This document shows, piece after piece, positions 53,299 through 64,000 of a stretch of DNA of 64,000 nt. The DNA lies in IMG/VR virus record IMGVR_UViG_3300032272_000005, positions 1-64,000 of that record; one strand, written 5' to 3'. Numbering within the stretch: the stretch's first letter is position 1; every line of letters starts with the position of its first letter. The DNA is from a virus (lineage: Duplodnaviria > Caudoviricetes). The translations under genes were made by a program, and so were the position numbers. The notes under the pieces are model-generated. The model was not told the DNA's origin. It made no database searches and worked only from the letters and a program-made list of their open reading frames with translations.

Positions 53299-53559
53299 TT
53301 ACCCTTGGATTGCCCTGATACCTGCAATAAAGCGGCGGGTATCACATAGAGTTACACCATCTTCTTTTAACAGCTTATTCATGTTGGTTGTTGACAGGAT
53401 CGCTTTGTAGATTTTTCCATCCCGTGAAACATACTGTGTAGGGCGAATGATCCGCGCGTCTTTCATGGAGGCGACAAGTTCACTTTGATCTGCACAGATT
53501 GCCATTTGTTGCGTGCCGTGGTTCCCCGCTGGAACCTTCTCTTGGTTTACATAAATCAT
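53299..53559 (-). CDS. Hypothetical protein between portal and MuF
   Basis: ATGA overlap with the portal gene. Confidence 0.6.
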   Translation of the reverse strand: MIYVNQEKVPAGNHGTQQMAICADQSELVASMKDARIIRPTQYVSRDGKIYKAILSTTNMNKLLKEDGVTLCDTRRFIAGIRAIQG

Positions 53560-55502
53560 AGGGAATAATCCTTCATTTCAGTACGCCGCTTGGCGTCGTT
53601 AAAGGCAGCTTTCGCATAGCCAGCAGATACCTCATTGGAAGCCGCTTCGACTAGGAACGGTGACGTATACATCAAGCGGGAAAGAATTTGCTCTACCCCG
53701 TCCTGATCGTCTGGAACCATTTCATCAAACTCTTTTTCAAGGGTCAGTAATTGTGTCAGACATGCCTCGGATGGGTTGTCTTCATAATCGCGTATGCATC
53801 TTTGCATTTTGGACGCCAGAACTTTAATGGCTTTTTGGGTTGCCCCTGCCGCGCCTTGCTCACCTTCATTGATCGGGGGTCGTGGGGTTATGCCTTGCCC
53901 CGTGCCTTCACCTGCTGGTGCTTCAGCTTGTGGTGTGATCAAGGTTTCTTTGAATTCCTCTGCCACTTTGATGTCAAGACTTGCAATCGTTGCCAGTTGG
54001 TCAACCCACTCTGACAAAGAAATACCTTCAGTTCTTTGCAACATTGAAAGTGCACGCAATTGTAGGTTCACGTCGTTCACTGTAAGCGGATTAGATACGA
54101 ATTTGAAAATACCTTTGGGATCAATTTCTCGCATGAAACTCATGTTGTAGCGTTCGTCTTCCTCAGTCCGTTCGGGTGCGAATACCTGTGCCTCGGCAAC
54201 CACGTAGGATGCGTGTGCTGTGGCGAAGTTATAACTATCAGATGCGCCCAAGAATATCGAAGGCATACGGAAAGAACGGCGTATCCGCAATTCATTACGC
54301 TCATCATATTTTTCGAAGGTACTGTCAGCGTCATTGGCCCCGAACTTTTCGACTTTCACTGTCGCGGCTTTCTCGCTGTCGAGATTACCAGACGCAGGAA
54401 CTTCAACAGCCACCCCACGTTGCTTCTTAGAAGATTGCCCACCCAGATATGAGTTCAGTGTCTTGGCTACTTCCTCAGATACAATACCGCCTGAGATAAA
54501 TACGATAACGGGTGGTACACCCCCACTGTGGAAGAATGCCAGATTGTGTTCTTCCGCCATACGTGATCCCAGAACCGACGGTAGCTGCGTGATCCAACGT
54601 GGCATACCATAAGGTGAGCGCACGTCTTCAATGTCTTTGTCGTGTACTATGGAATGTGCCCGACGCGCGGCTGGTAACTTCTCACCCTCTTTGGCCCATT
54701 CACCAGTTACGCGGTCAAGATCACGACTTGCACCATACTCTTTGTAGTAAATCAGCTTAGTGCCAATCTTCTGCACAAAACGGCGTTCTGCCCTCATAGT
54801 TTTTAGTTCAACTTCTTTACCACCCCGCATTACTTTCACAGTGACAGGTACGGCTGCATCCAGTTTCACCAGACGCATTGATTTGGACGGGGCACGACGC
54901 AAGAACGCCAAATCACCCGTCATAGTATGTTCAAAGACTTTGTAACTGTTGCCCGTGTGGTGTAGATCGCGGCGTAATTCTTTACGGGTTTTCATAAAGG
55001 ACTTGCGCGGAAATACCTCGGCCAAAAATTCTTCGATGTTTTCTTGTATAATTTTTTCTTCATCAGACAGATCAATGTTGTTGCTGTCTTTGGGTAAGAT
55101 TTTATACCCTGTCCCTGAGATATTTGTGATCATGGCTGCAATACAGGGTTCAAGTGTGTTGTTCTCAGACACCAAGCGTTCCAGCCGTTCAGGGGCTATT
55201 GGGGGTGCCAGCAAAGATGGCCCCGCGCTTATCCGAATGTAGTCATGGAAAAATTGGTCTTCCTGATCCAACAGTGTGGCGGATATATCCCCCCCAGTTG
55301 CGAGTTCTTTCCTGAACTTAGCGGCCTGTTTTGGGTCAAGATGGCTTTCGGCTTCTTTGGCCAATTCTTCACGGGTAAGCCCCGTCAATGCTGTCATGGC
55401 TAGGACACCATAATTGTGTCGGCCCCCATCTTCGGCTTTGAATACGTTTTGATTATCGCCTGTCAAGACGCGGCCTTTCGGGGGTTCTGTTTTCTTTGCC
55501 AT
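53556..55502 (-). CDS. Portal protein (PBSX/XkdE-like)
   Basis: YGMPRWI, N..FF..GGVP...I.ISGG, I.R.FR.P...LG....YN.ATA. Confidence 0.9.
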   Translation of the reverse strand: MAKKTEPPKGRVLTGDNQNVFKAEDGGRHNYGVLAMTALTGLTREELAKEAESHLDPKQAAKFRKELATGGDISATLLDQEDQFFHDYIRISAGPSLLAPPIAPERLERLVSENNTLEPCIAAMITNISGTGYKILPKDSNNIDLSDEEKIIQENIEEFLAEVFPRKSFMKTRKELRRDLHHTGNSYKVFEHTMTGDLAFLRRAPSKSMRLVKLDAAVPVTVKVMRGGKEVELKTMRAERRFVQKIGTKLIYYKEYGASRDLDRVTGEWAKEGEKLPAARRAHSIVHDKDIEDVRSPYGMPRWITQLPSVLGSRMAEEHNLAFFHSGGVPPVIVFISGGIVSEEVAKTLNSYLGGQSSKKQRGVAVEVPASGNLDSEKAATVKVEKFGANDADSTFEKYDERNELRIRRSFRMPSIFLGASDSYNFATAHASYVVAEAQVFAPERTEEDERYNMSFMREIDPKGIFKFVSNPLTVNDVNLQLRALSMLQRTEGISLSEWVDQLATIASLDIKVAEEFKETLITPQAEAPAGEGTGQGITPRPPINEGEQGAAGATQKAIKVLASKMQRCIRDYEDNPSEACLTQLLTLEKEFDEMVPDDQDGVEQILSRLMYTSPFLVEAASNEVSAGYAKAAFNDAKRRTEMKDYSL

Positions 55503-58500
55503 TAGTTCATACTCACCTTTTCAAGTCCCGCCAAATTCAAACCTAATTCACCGTCCACAGTAAATTGTAGTTCTGGCTCCCAGTCAAATTTTTCCTTAAA
55601 CGGTAAATTCTCCATTGTTTCTACAGCAAATCCCAAGGCTTTCATAGGGTCATTTTCATCCACGTACCATAACCCCTGATCGTGTATCTGTGCAAAAGGT
55701 ACTAACAGATCAGGTTGTTGTTCTTCGATTAGTCCCATACTCCACCACATCATGTCAACCAGTGTCCCTTGTATTGGTGAATTGATCGCCTGACGCTCGG
55801 AGGTTGAACGGGTCTTTTTGATGGGTGAGTATATGTTGTGTAAGCGTCTGGTTCTGCCAAGTGGTGATCTCACCATTCCAGTTTGTTGCGCTTCCATTAT
55901 CTGCCGTGAGTGCCACGCTTTCAGGCCAGGATATAGATCAAAGAATGCGTCACGCATGGCCTCGGCTTCTTCGATTTCCACCTTCACCCCGTATACGGCG
56001 TCGGCATACATCATAAAGCCATATGCCCCCATGCCATACAGCAACCCAAAATTACCAGCCTTGCCCCGTTGTCGAAGTTGCTCGTAAGCGGGTCGATCCA
56101 TTTTCTTTAGGTTCATGGCTTCTTCATATGTCATGGCGTTTGTTGTCGCGGCTGTCAGCGCGTGCAGATCAACCCCGTTCTTGTACGCCGTGATCATCTG
56201 TTGTTCTTGGCCCCAACATGCAGCGACTTTCAATTCGCCTTGGGAATAGTCAACCGCGCATATCAGTTTGCCCTTTGGTGCTATGATGCATTCGCGTAAT
56301 CGCTTGCCCCAGTATGAGTGCTTGGGCACTGTGTTGTGGACATACAACCCATTAGCCGTGAAGTCGTGCGTGTCTGGTACTGTGAAGTCATAGACATATT
56401 CCCCTACATTGGTGGGCAGAACTGTATCCACTTGCAACCCAGACCGCTTGCGATACTTGTAATCATCGGTCACGCGGTCTTCGGGCCAATCATCAGGAAG
56501 GCACCCCGCCCATGTAGCTGCACGTATCGCAGCCACCCCACTCCACGTAATTGTGCTGGTGAACTCAAGATCACGCAGATGAGGGGCATCAATTCCTTTG
56601 AGCAGACTTTCTTGTTGAACCACTCGTGCCAGTTCGAATGGCAGTTCTATCCTCAGTCCGACTTTGCCGCCCTTCATACGTGGGTAAGTTGCCATTGCCC
56701 CTACCATTCCACAGAGTACCCAGCCCATTGCTTTGGTTGCCCGTAGATGTCTTGGGATTTCTGGGGTCTTGCCATGCTCGAAAGCGGCTCTGAATTCTTC
56801 GGCCCCGTCTGACCAATAACCCCGTTCGCAATACAGCGTGAAGATCGCCACCCCGTCCACAGTATCCACCGTATATTTCTCTTGAAGTGTCGCAGCCCAC
56901 ACTCGGACTGGCCCCGCTACCCGTTCTGGAACCTCAATGTGCAAACGTGCCAATGTATGTGAAACCCGCCCAGACGCTAAACAGACGCCCATAGCACGGC
57001 ACATTTCCTTGGATACCCAGTCGGGTGCGTCCAGTAGGTCAATTCCATGATGTTGTATCAGGTGATCAGATGCGAGTAGGTTCTTGGCCTTGCACCAGCC
57101 CCTCTGGGTCTTCACTGGATGTTCTGGTGTACACTTTAGTTTCAGACCGTTCTTCAGTGTCAGTTCAACTATGTCACGCCGCCACGACTTGAACACGTTA
57201 GTGGTTTGTTGCCACCCTTCTAAGCCCCAGACTATTATTTCAGCTTTATGAATAGGAATGCGGCTGTCACCCACGATAGGGTCAATAATGCTTGCAGCCG
57301 TTTTAAGCCCCTCTGAGGTGATTATCTCGGTTTCCCCCGTAACACATTGGAAAGCGGGGTTAGTCGCCGTACCGCGCCCTGTAACGGTGCCACCACCCCC
57401 TTCTCCGCCTTTCGTTCCTTCCCCAACCTTGTGAATGATGTATGATGCGTGCCAGCGATCATCATAGCGCAGGTGTTTCAGGAAGCCCTCGTAATATGTG
57501 CCATACATCTTGGCTACAGATTTGTAATCCAGATATTGTTCGATCAATGGTCCAGCTATAGGGTGGTCTTTAAACTGTTCTAAGTGGAATTGTGATGTGG
57601 AAGGCTTTTGTGTTTTCTCAGTTACCTCAATAGGCTTGATACCACACCCCAATTGATTAGTCGGGCTGAACAAGAACTCGGCAATCATATTTGGCTTGGA
57701 TAGCGGGGCGCGTCCATGTTCGTCTATGCCCCCATATTTGTCCATGAGTTTGGTTGGCATCATATCCGCAGCTTTGCGCATACTTTCGGTTTGCCTTCCT
57801 TCCAGATCGGCCCCGTATTCGTGGAACTTTTCACGATCTACGCAGACGCCATGATGCTCCATTTTGTGCAGGGCAATCAAAGCAGGGTGAACCACATTCA
57901 TGTAGAGCGACGTTAGGGACTGTTTAGACGGGCCTCCATTCTGTGTTGGGTTGTCCTTGATCAACTCCCCCCGAATGGCCTTGTATACCTTTAGCCCCGC
58001 GTCTGTGTCACCACCTGCATAGGGCAGCAAATCGGGCTTCGGGACTTCATTCATTTTGGCTTTGTTGTAGGTACGGTTAAAGTGATCATCGTACCCCCCA
58101 AGTAATGGTGCATAAATCTTAGTGTGGACATTAAGCGTGTTAGCCCGATTTTCTTCAAGTAATGATCCGCCATTGCAGCTATCGAAGGTGAAGTTCGTGA
58201 ATACCACTTGCCACTTTACCCTCATCCAGCCCATGTCAAATTTGAAGTTAGCCCCAACAACCTTGACGCGCGGGTCTTTGGCAAGCTTCCGCATGTCGAT
58301 TATGAATTTCTTCATCTGCCATTCAGTTAAATCTGGCATGTAGATCACGTCGGATACCCCATCCGCTGCCGTGAATGATGCGCTCAGAATATTCTTATCC
58401 TTGAACCATGGGAATAGCCCTTCGGTTTCCAGATCACAGCACAGATCAACGGGTTTACCCGTCTGTTTGAATTTAGCGTTAATATAGGCGTTCACCCCAT

Positions 58501-58903
58501 CAAGATTGGTGACATAGGCGTAATCACCAAGTTCTGGTTCCATATTGCCAGTCTGCTCAAAGCGTTGGTACTGGCGAATGTCGCACATAAAATCTACGAA
58601 GTTGGTGAAGTCCATGTGTTTGATCTGTGGGGCATATGTCACCCCAAGATGTATAGGGTGCACCCATCCGTCAGGGTGTGCGGAAAACAACTTCCCACGG
58701 TTCGAGACAATGCCACCTTTGTTCGGTATCCACCCCGCCGCTTGGATCATATCCACGGCTGGCTTGCCACATGCAATCAAGAGCGTTTCTTCTGAGGGTT
58801 GTAGATACTGTGGATTTAGTTGGACTGTTGCGTTAGGAATACTTACGTCGGCAAGAGCCGACTTCACCAAGTCTGGATCGCATTTCTGTACTATTAATCT
58901 CAT
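55502..58903 (-). CDS. polA: Family A DNA polymerase with N-terminal UDG-like remnant, 3'-5' exonuclease and an intein
   Basis: DLETEG (ExoI), ANFKFD (ExoII), YAGGD (ExoIII); motif A DYSQGEL, motif B R..GKAGNFGLLYG, motif C IHD; AINSPIQG. Confidence 0.95.
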   Translation of the reverse strand: MRLIVQKCDPDLVKSALADVSIPNATVQLNPQYLQPSEETLLIACGKPAVDMIQAAGWIPNKGGIVSNRGKLFSAHPDGWVHPIHLGVTYAPQIKHMDFTNFVDFMCDIRQYQRFEQTGNMEPELGDYAYVTNLDGVNAYINAKFKQTGKPVDLCCDLETEGLFPWFKDKNILSASFTAADGVSDVIYMPDLTEWQMKKFIIDMRKLAKDPRVKVVGANFKFDMGWMRVKWQVVFTNFTFDSCNGGSLLEENRANTLNVHTKIYAPLLGGYDDHFNRTYNKAKMNEVPKPDLLPYAGGDTDAGLKVYKAIRGELIKDNPTQNGGPSKQSLTSLYMNVVHPALIALHKMEHHGVCVDREKFHEYGADLEGRQTESMRKAADMMPTKLMDKYGGIDEHGRAPLSKPNMIAEFLFSPTNQLGCGIKPIEVTEKTQKPSTSQFHLEQFKDHPIAGPLIEQYLDYKSVAKMYGTYYEGFLKHLRYDDRWHASYIIHKVGEGTKGGEGGGGTVTGRGTATNPAFQCVTGETEIITSEGLKTAASIIDPIVGDSRIPIHKAEIIVWGLEGWQQTTNVFKSWRRDIVELTLKNGLKLKCTPEHPVKTQRGWCKAKNLLASDHLIQHHGIDLLDAPDWVSKEMCRAMGVCLASGRVSHTLARLHIEVPERVAGPVRVWAATLQEKYTVDTVDGVAIFTLYCERGYWSDGAEEFRAAFEHGKTPEIPRHLRATKAMGWVLCGMVGAMATYPRMKGGKVGLRIELPFELARVVQQESLLKGIDAPHLRDLEFTSTITWSGVAAIRAATWAGCLPDDWPEDRVTDDYKYRKRSGLQVDTVLPTNVGEYVYDFTVPDTHDFTANGLYVHNTVPKHSYWGKRLRECIIAPKGKLICAVDYSQGELKVAACWGQEQQMITAYKNGVDLHALTAATTNAMTYEEAMNLKKMDRPAYEQLRQRGKAGNFGLLYGMGAYGFMMYADAVYGVKVEIEEAEAMRDAFFDLYPGLKAWHSRQIMEAQQTGMVRSPLGRTRRLHNIYSPIKKTRSTSERQAINSPIQGTLVDMMWWSMGLIEEQQPDLLVPFAQIHDQGLWYVDENDPMKALGFAVETMENLPFKEKFDWEPELQFTVDGELGLNLAGLEKVSMN
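56333..57346 (-). mobile_element. Intein (338 aa) in the DNA polymerase, with a probably degenerate homing endonuclease
   Basis: Starts CVTGET after NPAFQ; block B L.CTPEHP; ends VYDFTV...F.ANGLYVHN followed by Thr. Confidence 0.92.
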
Positions 58904-59637
58904 TTAGTGCCTTCTGTTAATTTTACCAGCGCGGGGAAAGGTGACGTTAGAAAGGGCCTTAAGGCCCCGTAAAACGCCCCGAACACCATGCGGAATTCTT
59001 CGGGGTTTTCTTGATAGGTGCCAGCACATTCAGCGTGGCAGGTGATGCGGTCTACATATTTGGTAGTGCCCCCCAGACGTGACAGGCACATAGCCACGTC
59101 GCCTTCTGGCTTCATATTGTCTTCTGTGGTGAACCGTAGTGAGATTGTTTTGTCTCTGATCCGTGCCGCGCCTCGGAAGTTAGGGCCAAGGAATACCGCG
59201 CGGTAAACTGAATTGTTGGAAGTTCCGTCAATTAACTGGTACATCTTTGAAGCGTTACAAAGAGAAACTGTGTTCGGGAAATACTCCGCAGCCACTTGTT
59301 CAATCCATTGTTCTTCATCCAGATTTGTACCATTTGAAAGCATTGTCTTTTTGGTTTGGTACACGGAAGGTGCAGTTGTGTACCCCGACTGGAAAATGTT
59401 TCTGACAGATGCAGCCGCAGCCACAATTTTCGACGTGTTCTTCTGCAAGTCGGCAACCCCAATTTTCAGGGTTGTGCTTCCATGCTCATGTAGAATTTTA
59501 GTCTCATTGAACCCTATGTGGACAGTGGTATCAATTGGGATGCCAGCTTCTTTGCAAAAGATACGGGCATTTTTCTTAATATAGTCTTGGGCACTATCGC
59601 CAAGATGTGAGGGGGCGTTTTTAAAGATGATAGCCAT
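58900..59637 (-). CDS. Hypothetical protein
   Basis: GGAG RBS; promoter 59671-59699. Confidence 0.7.
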   Translation of the reverse strand: MAIIFKNAPSHLGDSAQDYIKKNARIFCKEAGIPIDTTVHIGFNETKILHEHGSTTLKIGVADLQKNTSKIVAAAASVRNIFQSGYTTAPSVYQTKKTMLSNGTNLDEEQWIEQVAAEYFPNTVSLCNASKMYQLIDGTSNNSVYRAVFLGPNFRGAARIRDKTISLRFTTEDNMKPEGDVAMCLSRLGGTTKYVDRITCHAECAGTYQENPEEFRMVFGAFYGALRPFLTSPFPALVKLTEGTK

Positions 59638-59699
59638 TTGAATTAATCTCCAAAATTAGTGGTGTATACCTACATACGCCCCTACGAATAATTTGTCAA

Positions 59700-60275
59700 C
59701 TAATAACGGTAGCTGATTTCAACTTTCTCAGCGTCATAGTATTTGACCAGAAAATCGACTTGCTGCGAACTCTCGACAGCTTTGTGACAATATATCTTTT
59801 TGACGTAGTTCACAACGTCCTTGGGGGCCAGCCCCATATGCGCCAATACAGCGGCTATCACCAGCCCCGTCCGCCCATGTCCACCAATGCACCCGACATG
59901 AACTGTCAGGCCCGTGTCCAGTGCGTCTGCAATCTCTTGCACAAGCGAATGGAACTTACTCGGATTAGTCGGAACGCTCATGTTAGTTATCGGATAATAC
60001 GAGCAGCGGACAGGTTTGCTATCCTCTTTATAATGCGGGTGCTGTTGCATCCCGTCCAATGCTATGAACCAGTCCACATCTTTATGTCTGTCATGGTCGC
60101 GGCAGTTGCCCCCGATAAGAAAGCCTTTTGAGACGGGCAAGGGTTCATGCGTGTTATGGCAGCGTGGTCTAGCCGTGTATACTGTTTTTGCTTTAGATTT
60201 AGAGTTGTTCCCCCACAGATCACTGGTTGGATCACCCGTCGGGTCGAAATTGTCTAGGTCTATTTTGTTAGTCAT
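59700..60275 (-). CDS. CX5R (protein-tyrosine/dual-specificity) phosphatase
   Basis: HVGCIGGHGRTG; AVES..Q. Confidence 0.9.
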   Translation of the reverse strand: MTNKIDLDNFDPTGDPTSDLWGNNSKSKAKTVYTARPRCHNTHEPLPVSKGFLIGGNCRDHDRHKDVDWFIALDGMQQHPHYKEDSKPVRCSYYPITNMSVPTNPSKFHSLVQEIADALDTGLTVHVGCIGGHGRTGLVIAAVLAHMGLAPKDVVNYVKKIYCHKAVESSQQVDFLVKYYDAEKVEISYRY

Positions 60276-60276
60276 T

Positions 60277-61191
60277 TTAGGCTTCCTTCAAATGTGTAAA
60301 TCGTATTGGCCCTATCGCAGTGGTATTGCGCTCAAGGCGTGTGGCTGTTGATTTCTTCGGTTTCTTTTCCACGACTTCGGTAGGGTTAAGGTGCGCTTCT
60401 GCAATTGTTTTAAACAGCATGAATTGCTCATATACCTCATAAGACGTGTAGGCCTTAGTCGCCGCGATTTGCTCAGACATATCGAATACAGACGATTTCG
60501 CTTGTGCATTCAAAACTTCTTCAAGGTTATCGTCATGTATTTTGAAATAGAAACCTTTGTTAAATATTGGCCCCGTGTTGTGAACCAGTGTCCAACACCT
60601 ATCACATGCCAGCATGGCAGACATATTCCCGTCTAAATATTCCCTGAATTGATCAGCTATAATGCCCCATGCCTCACCCCCGAATGATCCTAGCCAGCCA
60701 CCCTCATGATAGTGCTTGCATACCGCGTCAAACAGCGGCCCGATTGCCAGTATACCATTTTTAGATATGCTTTTCATGTAATCTGATCCAGTCCCCACTT
60801 TGTAAATAGCGACTGCATGTGGATTGCCCTGCCAGTTATCCCCGAAAGCGGTTTCAATCATGTGATGCTTTGCATGGCGCAATTCTTTGATGCAAATTCT
60901 CCACAGGTAGAAAAGTAATGAACGTGCAACCGTCCCACAGGACTTGTTCCAAGCCGAGCATAATTTGTTGTAATCATCTTGAGACATATCTGGCTGTTGC
61001 AGAACCAGTTTGTCTGCCAACTCGACACCACCATAATGAATATATGCACCAACAGTCGGGCGCAGCATTTTTAACCCCTCTTGGTGATAATTATCAGCTT
61101 TGATAAGTTCCCCAATTGATACGTGTCGCTGTGGTTTAGCAACTCGCAAAGGGTGTTTTGTGAAATAGGTGTAGTCCATATTGATCTCCAA
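60277..61191 (-). CDS. Conserved-looking alpha-helical protein of unknown function
   Basis: FGGEAWG.IA, D..W.L.HNTG.IFNKG; promoter 61210-61238. Confidence 0.7.
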   Translation of the reverse strand: MEINMDYTYFTKHPLRVAKPQRHVSIGELIKADNYHQEGLKMLRPTVGAYIHYGGVELADKLVLQQPDMSQDDYNKLCSAWNKSCGTVARSLLFYLWRICIKELRHAKHHMIETAFGDNWQGNPHAVAIYKVGTGSDYMKSISKNGILAIGPLFDAVCKHYHEGGWLGSFGGEAWGIIADQFREYLDGNMSAMLACDRCWTLVHNTGPIFNKGFYFKIHDDNLEEVLNAQAKSSVFDMSEQIAATKAYTSYEVYEQFMLFKTIAEAHLNPTEVVEKKPKKSTATRLERNTTAIGPIRFTHLKEA

Positions 61192-61240
61192 AGTGGGTGG
61201 TGTTGGGCTAGCCTATTCCCCCATTAATGGTTTGTCAACC

Positions 61241-61858
61241 CTATGTTTTAAAACCAGTTAGCAAAGACCATAGACGGGCGCGTCTTGTCAGGATGGGTAG
61301 TGGTTCATCAAAGTGTATACGCCCCATTGCTTCCCAATCCACTGTAGGTGCACGTTCAATTGTAGACACATGCGTGAAAGGTGCGGATGCTTCAAACAAT
61401 CCCGCCAAATCCAGAACTTGATTATATTGGTCTTGGGTTTCTACAGCGTGGGCTTTGTAGTTGGCCCTCACATACGCCACAGCCGCCTCACCTGTGAATT
61501 GTGGGTGTTGTGCCACAAGAAGGGCTAACAGCGTCCCAGTGCGGCCTGTGCCGCCCATGCAACCGACATACAGCTTTCTTTTCCCGTCTTCCAGATCGCG
61601 CAATATGTCAGGAAGATTATACTCTATTGCATCAGTGTCGAATGTTTGGAAGTCGTTACACCCAAGGTCATAGGCAGGGACATAATCAATAGGGATTTCT
61701 ATTGCGCATTTCACCAAGCCATAATCGACTGGCTTTTCGCGTGTCGGGCCAGCGTGGACATAAGCCACTTTGCCAGATGCTAAAGGGATTGCTAAACATT
61801 TTAGGGTGGGCTGTTGATAATGGTTCATCGGTTTACTTTCTTCACTAGGGTATCGCAC
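61241..61858 (-). CDS. Second CX5R phosphatase
   Basis: YVGCMGGTGRTG; AVET..Q. Confidence 0.9.
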   Translation of the reverse strand: MRYPSEESKPMNHYQQPTLKCLAIPLASGKVAYVHAGPTREKPVDYGLVKCAIEIPIDYVPAYDLGCNDFQTFDTDAIEYNLPDILRDLEDGKRKLYVGCMGGTGRTGTLLALLVAQHPQFTGEAAVAYVRANYKAHAVETQDQYNQVLDLAGLFEASAPFTHVSTIERAPTVDWEAMGRIHFDEPLPILTRRARLWSLLTGFKT

Positions 61859-62205
61859 AAAGGTGCTTCTCGATTAAAGGCGCGGGGGCAGGGTCGGGTT
61901 GCTGTTCCGTACTTGCCATTCATATCTCGTTTCACAGTTTGCAGCATTAGTCCCTTACAGATTTTGCATTCCTGAACGGGTCTTTCATCTACGACAATCG
62001 GGCCAATCATGGAGAATGACAGAACTGTGTCTGCTGGCATGTGCAGCACGTATGATCCGAAGACTTTATTGCCCATAGAATGAAACGTATTTGTTGCCGC
62101 TGCCGCAATACCTCGAACACGGTTTTCAGTGTCATTACTAAACCCACAGTGACGGGCTTGGGATATTGCAATGGGGGATACTTTTATCTCATGTAATTTC
62201 AGCAT
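61825..62205 (-). CDS. Hypothetical protein with C-terminal CxxC...C
   Basis: Packed ORF. Confidence 0.55.
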   Translation of the reverse strand: MLKLHEIKVSPIAISQARHCGFSNDTENRVRGIAAAATNTFHSMGNKVFGSYVLHMPADTVLSFSMIGPIVVDERPVQECKICKGLMLQTVKRDMNGKYGTATRPCPRAFNREAPLCDTLVKKVNR

Positions 62206-62461
62206 CGTCTTGCCACCAGATGTTGACTGATTTTGGTGCAGCTATAACAACTTTGATCCGCTTGCCCTGTGAAGATCGCCTGTCCACCCCGACAAACACT
62301 TCGGGCCATATCTCGAAAGTACGATCCCATGACAACCCGAAGCGATCCCCATTGTCCAGTTCCACTAAGCAAAATCCAGGCCGCTGAATGGAAAGAACAG
62401 TCAGATTGTGATCCCCTACGAAGATCGTTTGCTTTTCCAAGACTGAACATATTTTCGACAT
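62189..62461 (-). CDS. CsrA/RsmA-like protein
   Basis: IKVVIAAPKSVNI resembles CsrA VRIGVNAPKEVSV; QTIFVGDHNLTVLSI resembles ETLMIGDEVTVTVLGV. Confidence 0.5.
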   Translation of the reverse strand: MSKICSVLEKQTIFVGDHNLTVLSIQRPGFCLVELDNGDRFGLSWDRTFEIWPEVFVGVDRRSSQGKRIKVVIAAPKSVNIWWQDDAEIT

Positions 62462-62473
62462 TTCGGCACATTC

Positions 62474-64000
62474 TCAGGTTACATCCAGTAGGTCAAGTAA
62501 ATCTATTGATTTGGTAAACTTGGAGGGTGTGAGCGTTCCTGTTGCGCTACGGAATTCTGTTAGGGCATTTCCTTCGGTTCCGAAGACGATATGCCCCGCC
62601 AAACTATCTCTGAAGTATTTGATAAACCCTTGATGAATAACCCCCACTTTGTTGGAGATCAAATCCTCACCATGACCAGTAAAATCCACTTCAAATGCAG
62701 CATGGTTTTTGCTGTCGGCTTTCTTGTGTTTTTCAGCCGCGATTATTTTTTCTTCCGTATCTGCCATGTTGCCAAGGTCAAGCACATAGGTGCGGTGCGT
62801 TCCCGCGTCTGAGTTTTTAAGGAAGAACACGTTATCAGATATGTCGCCGCCATGCTTATCGAATTCAGCTTTTAAAATGTCGTACAGTTCGGTAACGTCT
62901 CCACCAACGGATATATCCATTTTGCCAACCCAGACGCCGCCAGTGCCCCCGTCAATCGTTATAGTCTCACCCCTAACCATTGTGTTACCACCGATCTTTA
63001 CAAAGTCTACACCGTCGTTATGGGTGAACTCAAGATCATCAGCCCCGACAACTGCCGAAACTCCAATGCCCCTTGCGACAACCGCAGAGTGACATGTGAA
63101 GCCACCCGTCTTGGTCAGGATTGCACCCGCCGCAGCCATTTGTGGGAAGTCTTCGGGTTGGGTATCTTCCGCAACCAGAATACAGGTTTTGTCGATGTCG
63201 CCTAACGGGGTGTCTCTCCAAACGATCCGACCAGAAAATGCAGATGGTGAAGCGGCAAGCCCAACAACACAGGGTTCATCTTTGGAAGATACGAATGAGA
63301 CTTTGGAACTTTCAACCATTCTGCGTGTCAGGCGTTTCTTCAAATAGTTCAAAGGGATTTTTTCCTCTTTGGCAAATTGGACAGCCGTGTCGATCCGTGC
63401 CTTGGCAGACATTTTAGCTGTCCGCGTTTGCAGCACATAAAGCGTTCCGCTCTCGACAGTGAACTCAATATCTTGGACGTCTTTGTAGCGGGTTTCCAGT
63501 TTCCCGCACAGGTCACGTAACTTCACATAAAGCGCGTGTTTCTCGCCGCCCTCATCCCACAGTTCATTGATATTCTGCGGTGTGATTTCGCCTGACACAA
63601 TTTCTTCACCTTGGCAGTTGAACCCGATTTCACCAGTGATTTTATTTTCGCCAGTGGCAGGGTCGCGGGTGAACATTACGCCACTTCCAGAAAGCCCATC
63701 TGCGGTTCCCATTACCATGCGCTGGACTATACAGGCCGTTCCCATGTTATCGTCAATATCGTGCATCTTGCGGTAGGCTTTGGCGCGTGGTGTATTCCAG
63801 CTTTCGAATACTGCGGTGACGCATGAGGTCACTTGGTCAATTCTTTCAGATGGGATTGTCACGCCAGCCGCGTGTCCAAGTAAACGATCCAGCAATACAT
63901 TTTTGAAAGTGCCAAATGTTTCTGAGCGTTTCTTGATTTCATCCATCAGGTATTTCACCCGCTCTTTGGATATGTCTTTTACAATGGTCAACCAGCCCGT
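62474..64000 (-). CDS. PPDK-like ATP-grasp + phospho-His swivel protein lacking the PEP/pyruvate barrel (5' end outside the window)
   Basis: AVF.SWN..RA..YR, GTA..VQ.MV, SG.GV.FTRDP.TGE, QGEE.VSG, QD.EFT.E...LQTR and GG.T.H.AVVARG; the frame stays open to nt 64000. Confidence 0.9.
   Translation of the reverse strand, partial: TGWLTIVKDISKERVKYLMDEIKKRSETFGTFKNVLLDRLLGHAAGVTIPSERIDQVTSCVTAVFESWNTPRAKAYRKMHDIDDNMGTACIVQRMVMGTADGLSGSGVMFTRDPATGENKITGEIGFNCQGEEIVSGEITPQNINELWDEGGEKHALYVKLRDLCGKLETRYKDVQDIEFTVESGTLYVLQTRTAKMSAKARIDTAVQFAKEEKIPLNYLKKRLTRRMVESSKVSFVSSKDEPCVVGLAASPSAFSGRIVWRDTPLGDIDKTCILVAEDTQPEDFPQMAAAGAILTKTGGFTCHSAVVARGIGVSAVVGADDLEFTHNDGVDFVKIGGNTMVRGETITIDGGTGGVWVGKMDISVGGDVTELYDILKAEFDKHGGDISDNVFFLKNSDAGTHRTYVLDLGNMADTEEKIIAAEKHKKADSKNHAAFEVDFTGHGEDLISNKVGVIHQGFIKYFRDSLAGHIVFGTEGNALTEFRSATGTLTPSKFTKSIDLLDLLDVT

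Follow-up and report, generated by a model that had tools for sequence, protein, structure and literature searches.

The 64,000-base window analysed here (bases 1–64000 of the 87,332-bp phage record IMGVR_UViG_3300032272_000005, which carries direct terminal repeats) ends inside a conserved block of seven genes, one of which encodes a protein derived from pyruvate phosphate dikinase (PPDK), termed here the dikinase. Judged from its sequence, this protein is an ATP-driven phosphate carrier without a pyruvate site, and not a glycolytic PPDK. The block also encodes (i) two Cys-dependent phosphatases (PTP1 and PTP2), (ii) X, a protein whose predicted fold has no match in the PDB, and (iii) a CsrA-like protein (p90) and the proteins p126 and p245. 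With a probability of roughly 0.45, we consider these genes to form a core phosphoryl-transfer module that is specific to one phage lineage and centred on the dikinase.

The dikinase gene (P0001) lies on the minus strand and extends from window position 62474 to genome coordinate 64339 (L002:4475–6340), its in-window part being 62474..64000. Only this part was available to an earlier note on the same DNA; sequence fetched from beyond the window completed the open reading frame (ORF), which encodes 621 aa. The protein consists of an ATP-grasp domain (residues 1–345), a phospho-His domain (approximately 350–475, containing His417), a linker helix (483–496) and a beta/alpha tail (500–621). The first two domains were recognized by the Pfam models PPDK_N (PF01326; 1e-40) and PEP-utilizers mobile domain (PF00391; 6e-20), and the Pfam scan gave no match past approximately residue 470. 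The dikinase carries GGFTCHSAVVARG; across 39 relatives, neither the catalytic His417, which belongs to the GGxTxHxAVVARG motif, nor Thr415 varies. The invariant motifs GGKG, SVRSGA..SMPGMMDT, DIEFT, LQTR and GGFTCHSAVVARG are all shared with cellular PPDK. The earlier note had stated that the ATP-grasp and swivelling phospho-His domains are kept, and both the Pfam matches and these motifs bear this out.

The nearest relatives of the dikinase are about 33 metagenomic proteins of 575–650 aa (43–53% identity), which lack the PF02896 barrel domain. They are followed by cellular PPDKs (about 880 aa), which are about 38% identical to the dikinase over the first three quarters. Compared with PPDK (EC 2.7.9.1; C. 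symbiosum 1KBL/1DIK; TIGR01828), the ATP-grasp domain, phospho-His swivel, linker helix and domain order are the same and every nucleotide-site and catalytic His/Thr motif is conserved, whereas the barrel has shrunk from about 340 to about 125 aa and has no catalytic residues. When the short forms were aligned with cellular PPDK using hhalign (probability 100%), residues 12–495 were matched to PPDK residues 14–534, and there the alignment stopped. The TIGR01828 PPDK equivalog model (NCBIfam) scored the dikinase at 349.6 bits against a cut-off of 843.45, and only profile positions 18–510 of 865 were covered. The barrel blocks of cellular PPDK (RTEHMF, IRLLDPPLHEF, GTMIE, FGTNDLTQ and CGEHGG) have no counterpart in the dikinase, from which PF02896 is absent. 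The earlier note had raised the possibility that a separate gene supplies the phosphoenolpyruvate (PEP) barrel; this was rejected, since a PF02896 search of the whole 87-kb phage genome was empty at E≤10. With no sequence trace of the barrel and the TIGR01828 cut-off missed by about 500 bits, the view that the gene does not encode an ordinary PPDK is upheld. Among the dikinase matches recorded as “Bacteriophage sp.” and “Enterococcus phage”, the two examined were ordinary 881-aa PPDKs without partner genes, from unverified records.

Column conservation is lower in the C-terminal tail (0.51) than in the catalytic domains (0.67), and the tail contains no invariant polar residue. BLAST could not align the tails of different phage lineages, a word-index search found no relatives of the tail, and comparison of the tail with the PPDK barrel by hhalign returned a probability of 0.4%. 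In the AlphaFold model of the dikinase (pLDDT 87), the tail forms beta/alpha units. VIA-align superimposed this model on C. symbiosum PPDK (1kbl) with a Z of 33.6 and 561 residues aligned (model 2–621 on chain 2–873). Since the model overlays PPDK to its last residue, the tail is probably a decayed, fast-evolving half-barrel remnant of the PPDK TIM barrel. The earlier note had described it as approximately 140 unrelated residues replacing the barrel. The lack of sequence similarity to the barrel stands, but the fold overlays part of that domain, so that a remnant of about 125 aa is the more probable description. A four-strand TIM-like domain has been described in a phage PPDK, and PEP was docked into it (PMC12038007); a vestigial barrel would account for this domain. 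Nothing supports a working PEP/pyruvate site in the tail.

In contrast to PPDK, the phage dikinase is, in effect, always encoded together with two Cys phosphatases and X. A scan of IMG/VR yielded 54 distinct short forms of the dikinase, 41 of which had at least 4.5 kb of downstream sequence; the arrangement PTP-X-PTP was found beside 38 of these 41, and the remaining three carry part of it. Partner genes accompanied none of the 13 full-length PPDKs from the same scan. When X was taken as the starting point, a short dikinase was located upstream in all 52 cases with enough upstream sequence, and a PTP downstream in 67 of 67. In a bacterial scan of one genome per species (185,579 species), X occurred nine times, each time inside the same phage block, and no independent genomic context for it was found in these genomes. 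The dikinase, X and the PTPs are also present in the same records of isolated phages of Vibrio, Stenotrophomonas, Rhizobium and Rhodobacter. Among the matches listed, the large terminase (TerL) of block-bearing phages is at least 37% identical to that of the phage studied here, and the host groups of more distant TerL relatives (Gordonia, Pseudomonas and others) gave no dikinase match. The co-occurrence on which the earlier note had made its reading depend is therefore near-absolute in both directions.

X (60277..61191, minus strand; 304 aa, or 300 aa if translated from the ATG at 61179) belongs to a family with 1451 cluster representatives at E≤1e-3 (clusters at 50% identity). Thirteen residues are invariant among 60 diverse members (Y49, Y91, E99, R101, H102, G167, G168, W171, D193, H200, N201, K208 and Q226), and the GGEAW and HNTGPIFNKG motifs, previously noted as conserved-looking, are indeed conserved in the family. 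The structural model of X is all-alpha (pLDDT 88). It had no fold match in the PDB (Foldseek E>0.2; VIA-align Z≤4.3 over 48,161 chains), and in BFVD it matched four unnamed phage proteins only. Ten of the longest matches listed contained no informative Pfam domain fused to X, and no dikinase-X fusion was present across 69 IMG/VR loci. The aGPT-Pplase/AADT Pfam models gave no match in 34 members of the X family, even at E≤10. A lead towards AcrVA2-like proteins (PF26125) consisted of a protein-atlas feature score of 0.93 only, and the X profile search of PDB sequences gave no AcrVA2-named chain. The invariant polar set and Gly-rich loop suggest that X represents a large, phage-only family of enzyme-like proteins. 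Both these residues and the exclusive linkage to the dikinase fit the role of a candidate acceptor or specificity subunit acting in trans; X is likewise a candidate catalytic subunit.

X is flanked by the two phosphatase genes, both on the minus strand: PTP1 (61241..61858; loop CMGGTGRTG, dual-specificity type) and PTP2 (59700..60275; loop GCIGGHGRTG). Their description in the earlier note as intact Cys-dependent enzymes proved correct, since both CX5R loops are present (CMGGTGR in PTP1 and CIGGHGR in PTP2) and the pair scored 31.5 and 32.4 bits with PF22784 (PTP-SAK), above the gathering score of 27. The Cys and Arg of the loop are kept in all full-length orthologues, and the PTP2 loop is nearly fixed (42 of 45 orthologues). 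The general-acid Asp, expected about 30 residues upstream of the Cys, is invariant in PTP1; at the corresponding position of PTP2, Asp is found in 21 of 27 lineages and Asn in the other six (the clade of this phage and V-YDF132). Outside the active-site loop, PTP2 has invariant Cys38, His42, Cys57 and Cys162, possibly a structural zinc site. Both phosphatase profiles were nearest to small archaeal-type or atypical PTPs (Tk-PTP 5Z59, SsoPTP 2I6I and DUSP23 4ERC). With these small archaeal and atypical phosphatases of the PTP-DSP type, PTP1 and PTP2 share the CX5R(T) P-loop, size and fold family; the phage proteins differ in being two fixed paralogues flanking X, and PTP2 additionally in its invariant Cys/His cluster and variable general acid.

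All genes of the 53.5–64 kb region are carried by the minus strand. The genes are arranged in a conserved order, namely TerL, dikinase, CsrA-like protein, p126, PTP1, X, PTP2, p245, DNA polymerase and portal; in this phage, two uncharacterized genes lie between the large terminase gene, which is upstream, and that of the dikinase. The junctions are tight. The ATG at 61828, which is likely to be the true start of PTP1, overlaps the p126 stop codon as ATGA, and 1 nt separates the X stop codon from the start of PTP2, which is also the median distance across loci. The end of p245 overlaps the start of the DNA polymerase gene. Since, in addition, scanning for promoters and terminators gave no signal in the block exceeding the shuffled control, the block reads as belonging to one long transcription unit. 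The operon-like block of the earlier note is supported in that the genes form one conserved unit, with co-occurrence almost without exception.

Immediately downstream of the dikinase gene is that of p90 (62189..62461, minus strand; 90 aa; family profile A7). With Pfam alone, its similarity to CsrA (PF02599) was under the cut-off (14.3 bits versus 27; E 0.042). However, the eight top PDB matches of a 14-member family profile were all CsrA/RsmE structures (E 1.4e-4 to 4.6e-3), so that the earlier CsrA-like assignment holds at the family level. The alignment with the CsrA/RsmE regulators runs through the N-terminal MxLIL..G..xxxGD strand motif and the C-terminal APxxVxIxRxE segment, between which p90 has an insertion of about 35 aa. 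In a scan of 82 related loci, 59 contained a match to the p90 profile, in each case directly behind the dikinase gene. p126 (61825..62205, minus strand; 126 aa; alignment A6) is conserved over an N-terminal domain of about 70 aa and has, in the close clade only, a zinc-ribbon-like CxxC...C...C tail; it had no PDB or Pfam match, and its profile was found in 42 of the same 82 loci. For p245 (58900..59637, minus strand; alignment A5), the last gene of the block, the corresponding number was 50, and no match was obtained in PDB, Pfam, NCBIfam or Atlas.

As stated in the earlier note, the block is located directly upstream of the DNA polymerase gene (55502..58903, minus strand). This encodes a family A enzyme with a 3′-5′ exonuclease domain and an intein (PF14890; 4.8e-12; approximately residues 568–856), and is directly followed by the portal gene (53556–55502, minus strand). 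With its intein, the polymerase has 1133 aa, compared to about 780–800 aa in most relatives; some relatives have 1435–1445 aa. On the other side of the block, upstream of the terminase and beyond the window (genome 67.7–72.7 kb; L002:9679–14676), there are genes encoding a PAPS-reductase with DUF3440 (IbrA-like), a class-I methyltransferase and two ParB_N proteins.

To account for the composition of the block, we propose the following scheme. ATP would charge His417 of the dikinase, with the release of AMP plus PPi or Pi, and the swivel domain would then pass the phosphoryl group to a substrate held by X, not to pyruvate. X, as a new-fold, enzyme-like protein, would have taken over the acceptor role in trans. 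PTP2, which would be translationally coupled to X, and PTP1 would hydrolyse the phosphate from the product or from intermediates, making it a transient activating group or a controlled mark, and the CsrA-like protein is a probable modulator of the block's translation. We regard the split-dikinase architecture as rather probable. The class of substrate can be named only tentatively: a target that is either a nucleotide or linked to nucleic acid, and on which replication of the phage DNA depends, is favoured, because the block adjoins the DNA polymerase gene and the slot just upstream of the dikinase is sometimes occupied by nucleotide-metabolism genes. The adjacency to DNA polymerase A is constant, and this slot contains dCTP deaminase, dNMP kinase or MazG in at least eight of 52 lineages. 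In other lineages it contains HNH endonuclease, DnaJ, ART-like, ligase-like or uncharacterized genes, and the support that it lends to a nucleotide substrate is therefore modest (examples of the variable slot are L004:7312–7860, L031:9263–9868, L066:9220–9849 and L023:9020–9616). Central carbon metabolism is an unlikely target. Taken as a whole, the decayed barrel, X as an acceptor in trans and the two dedicated Cys phosphatases might represent an undescribed nucleotide or nucleic-acid phospho-cycling pathway needed for replication of a large siphophage lineage, although we hold this more specific proposal to be doubtful. Such a pathway might, for instance, use phospho-His to charge (d)NDP or (d)NMP, or activate a DNA precursor by transient phosphorylation.

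Several observations weigh against this scheme. The link to nucleotide metabolism is drawn from gene neighbourhood only and is a modest one; the location of the block between the terminase and portal genes is unusual for a replication module; and since both phosphatases are most like small protein-tyrosine/dual-specificity phosphatases, a protein target fits equally well. Moreover, the vestigial tail could still bind a ligand. The earlier note had envisaged a writer/eraser system, but this is only one reading of a kinase encoded with two phosphatases, and serial action of the enzymes in one pathway is equally possible. No evidence points to components of the phosphotransferase system (PTS) or to defence signals, which had been suggested there as targets.

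A protein target is central to an explanation by host take-over, which we consider unlikely. Here, a protein of the host or phage would receive the phosphate of the phospho-His domain, much as HPr is phosphorylated by Enzyme I; host proteins such as PTS components, BY-kinase targets or RNA polymerase would be dephosphorylated by the PTPs; and the CsrA-like protein would reprogramme carbon-metabolism mRNAs. The similarity of the phosphatase profiles to protein Tyr and dual-specificity phosphatases (5z59, SsoPTP and DUSP23) is in agreement with such activity, as are the invariant general-acid Asp of PTP1, which is typical of phosphomonoester and protein substrates, the CsrA-like regulator as a fixed block member, and the swivel domain, which is common to PTS Enzyme I. 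However, swivel domains of the PPDK type are without the HPr-binding helical subdomain of Enzyme I and no phospho-carrier-like protein was recognized. Host take-over would also leave the enzymatic-looking X without a role, and the strict linkage to DNA polymerase unexplained. If the acceptor were instead a nucleic acid end, the dikinase would phosphorylate 5′-OH groups and the Cys phosphatases would remove 3′, 2′ or 5′-tri-phosphates, healing RNA or DNA ends and so countering host nucleases that cut tRNA or DNA. RNA triphosphatases of the Cys-phosphatase type exist (baculovirus BVP and DUSP11), and cysteine phosphatases acting on phosphoanhydrides do not need a general acid, since the leaving group requires no protonation. 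The Asn of PTP2 in six of 27 lineages would suit this activity, and the presence of a CsrA-like and a zinc-ribbon protein in the block, as well as ligase-like genes nearby in some lineages, points in the same direction. The block, however, has no ligase as a fixed member and no recognized end-binding domain, PTP2 keeps Asp in the other 21 lineages, and its PDB matches are not RNA triphosphatases; end healing is, in our estimation, distinctly less probable than host take-over. Least probable by far is a true auxiliary metabolic PPDK, in which the short tail, perhaps as a half-barrel dimer, still binds PEP/pyruvate. In its favour, genuine PPDKs are the cellular proteins most closely related to the dikinase (about 38% identity over the first 75%), the modelled tail overlays part of the barrel, and a four-strand barrel-like domain has been described and used for docking of PEP (PMC12038007). 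It is opposed by the missing barrel motifs, the lack of invariant polar residues in the tail, the profile probability of 0.4% and the deficit of about 500 bits with TIGR01828, and an obligate link to two phosphatases and X does not fit a glycolytic enzyme.

The remaining explanation is post-replicative DNA hypermodification, by analogy with the pathway of 5-hmdU DNA kinase and amino-acid:DNA transferase: the dikinase would (pyro)phosphorylate a group on DNA, X would substitute the activated position, and the phosphatases would clear leftovers. A kinase and a helical transferase-like enzyme beside a DNA polymerase do resemble thymidine hypermodification clusters (PMC8989533), and DNA of a relative, Stenotrophomonas phage DLP3, was reported to be uncut by 15 restriction enzymes (PMC7326821), even though four of these have sites in its first 50 kb. 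In that region of DLP3 (L095) we counted 40 SmaI, nine ClaI, six EcoRI sites and one NdeI site; the remaining 11 enzymes have no site there. The reported resistance is therefore for the most part explained by missing sites, and ordinary methylation might account for the rest. The genome studied here encodes no homologue of thymidylate synthase (PF00303), ThyX (PF02511) or TET/JBP (PF12851), and a hydroxymethyl-pyrimidine route was rejected on these grounds; the lack of aGPT-Pplase/AADT matches in the X family, reported above, also speaks against hypermodification. In addition, avoidance of restriction sites in the genome is extreme: a single CCGG was counted where 263 are expected, and the median observed/expected ratio (O/E) of 6-bp palindromes is 0.27, with many at zero (AGATCT 0 of 20, CACGTG 0 of 16.5 and ACGCGT 0 of 15 expected). 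An O/E below 0.6 was found for 62% of palindromic 6-mers versus 6% of non-palindromes. Relatives avoid other 4-mers (GGCC, 0 of 47 in V-YDF132; GATC, 0 of 46 in L079). Such avoidance argues that the DNA of these phages can be cut, which disfavours global hypermodification; we hold this explanation to be improbable, if marginally less so than end healing.

Enzymes that reuse the ATP-grasp and His-swivel domains on other substrates are already known, namely rifampicin phosphotransferase, the prodigiosin ligases PigC/RedH and glucan water dikinase, the last of which works against dual-specificity phosphatases (SEX4, laforin-type). The rifampicin phosphotransferase and PigC/RedH families were found as weaker profile matches of the dikinase, which scored 77 bits with the rifampicin phosphotransferase model NF041857 (cut-off 999). 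Rifampicin phosphotransferase (5HV1) has the same two catalytic domains, arranged in the order ATP-grasp, substrate domain, His domain. As a precedent, proposed in the earlier note, it fails on this domain order, since the His domain of the dikinase is central (350–475) and is followed by the tail. More generally, the substrate domain is fused and the domain order differs in rifampicin phosphotransferase, PigC/RedH and glucan water dikinase, whereas the phage protein has retained the order of PPDK and its putative acceptor, X, is separate. What is unusual here is thus not the repurposing of a His-swivel dikinase, but the decayed barrel, the separate acceptor candidate of unmatched fold and the two obligate phosphatases.

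In the literature consulted, the dikinase gene has been linked to glycolysis only, as a PPDK auxiliary metabolic gene, a label that is not supported by the present analysis. Labels given to neighbouring genes of the block also look spurious. Orthologues of PTP2 are named “thymidylate synthase” in PHROG 17568 and in several GenBank records (e.g. DLP5_143), those of p245 are named “transporter”, and a nearby ORF “pyruvate decarboxylase”. For phage DLP3, the authors’ own domain search called the PTP2 orthologue a PTP (PMC7326821).

These observations bear on the annotation of a sizeable group of phages. The dikinase gene is presented as a glycolytic auxiliary metabolic gene in dozens of published phage genomes, and at least one paper is devoted to it in that role, while the real unit is a conserved seven-gene block that includes the X family, which comprises over 1,400 clusters (50% identity). 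Correct annotation matters in particular for several block-bearing phages that are candidates for use in aquaculture and in Stenotrophomonas phage therapy. The substrate of the dikinase, once worked out, would add to the short list of repurposed His-swivel dikinases, and could bring to light a novel step of nucleotide or nucleic-acid metabolism in phages.

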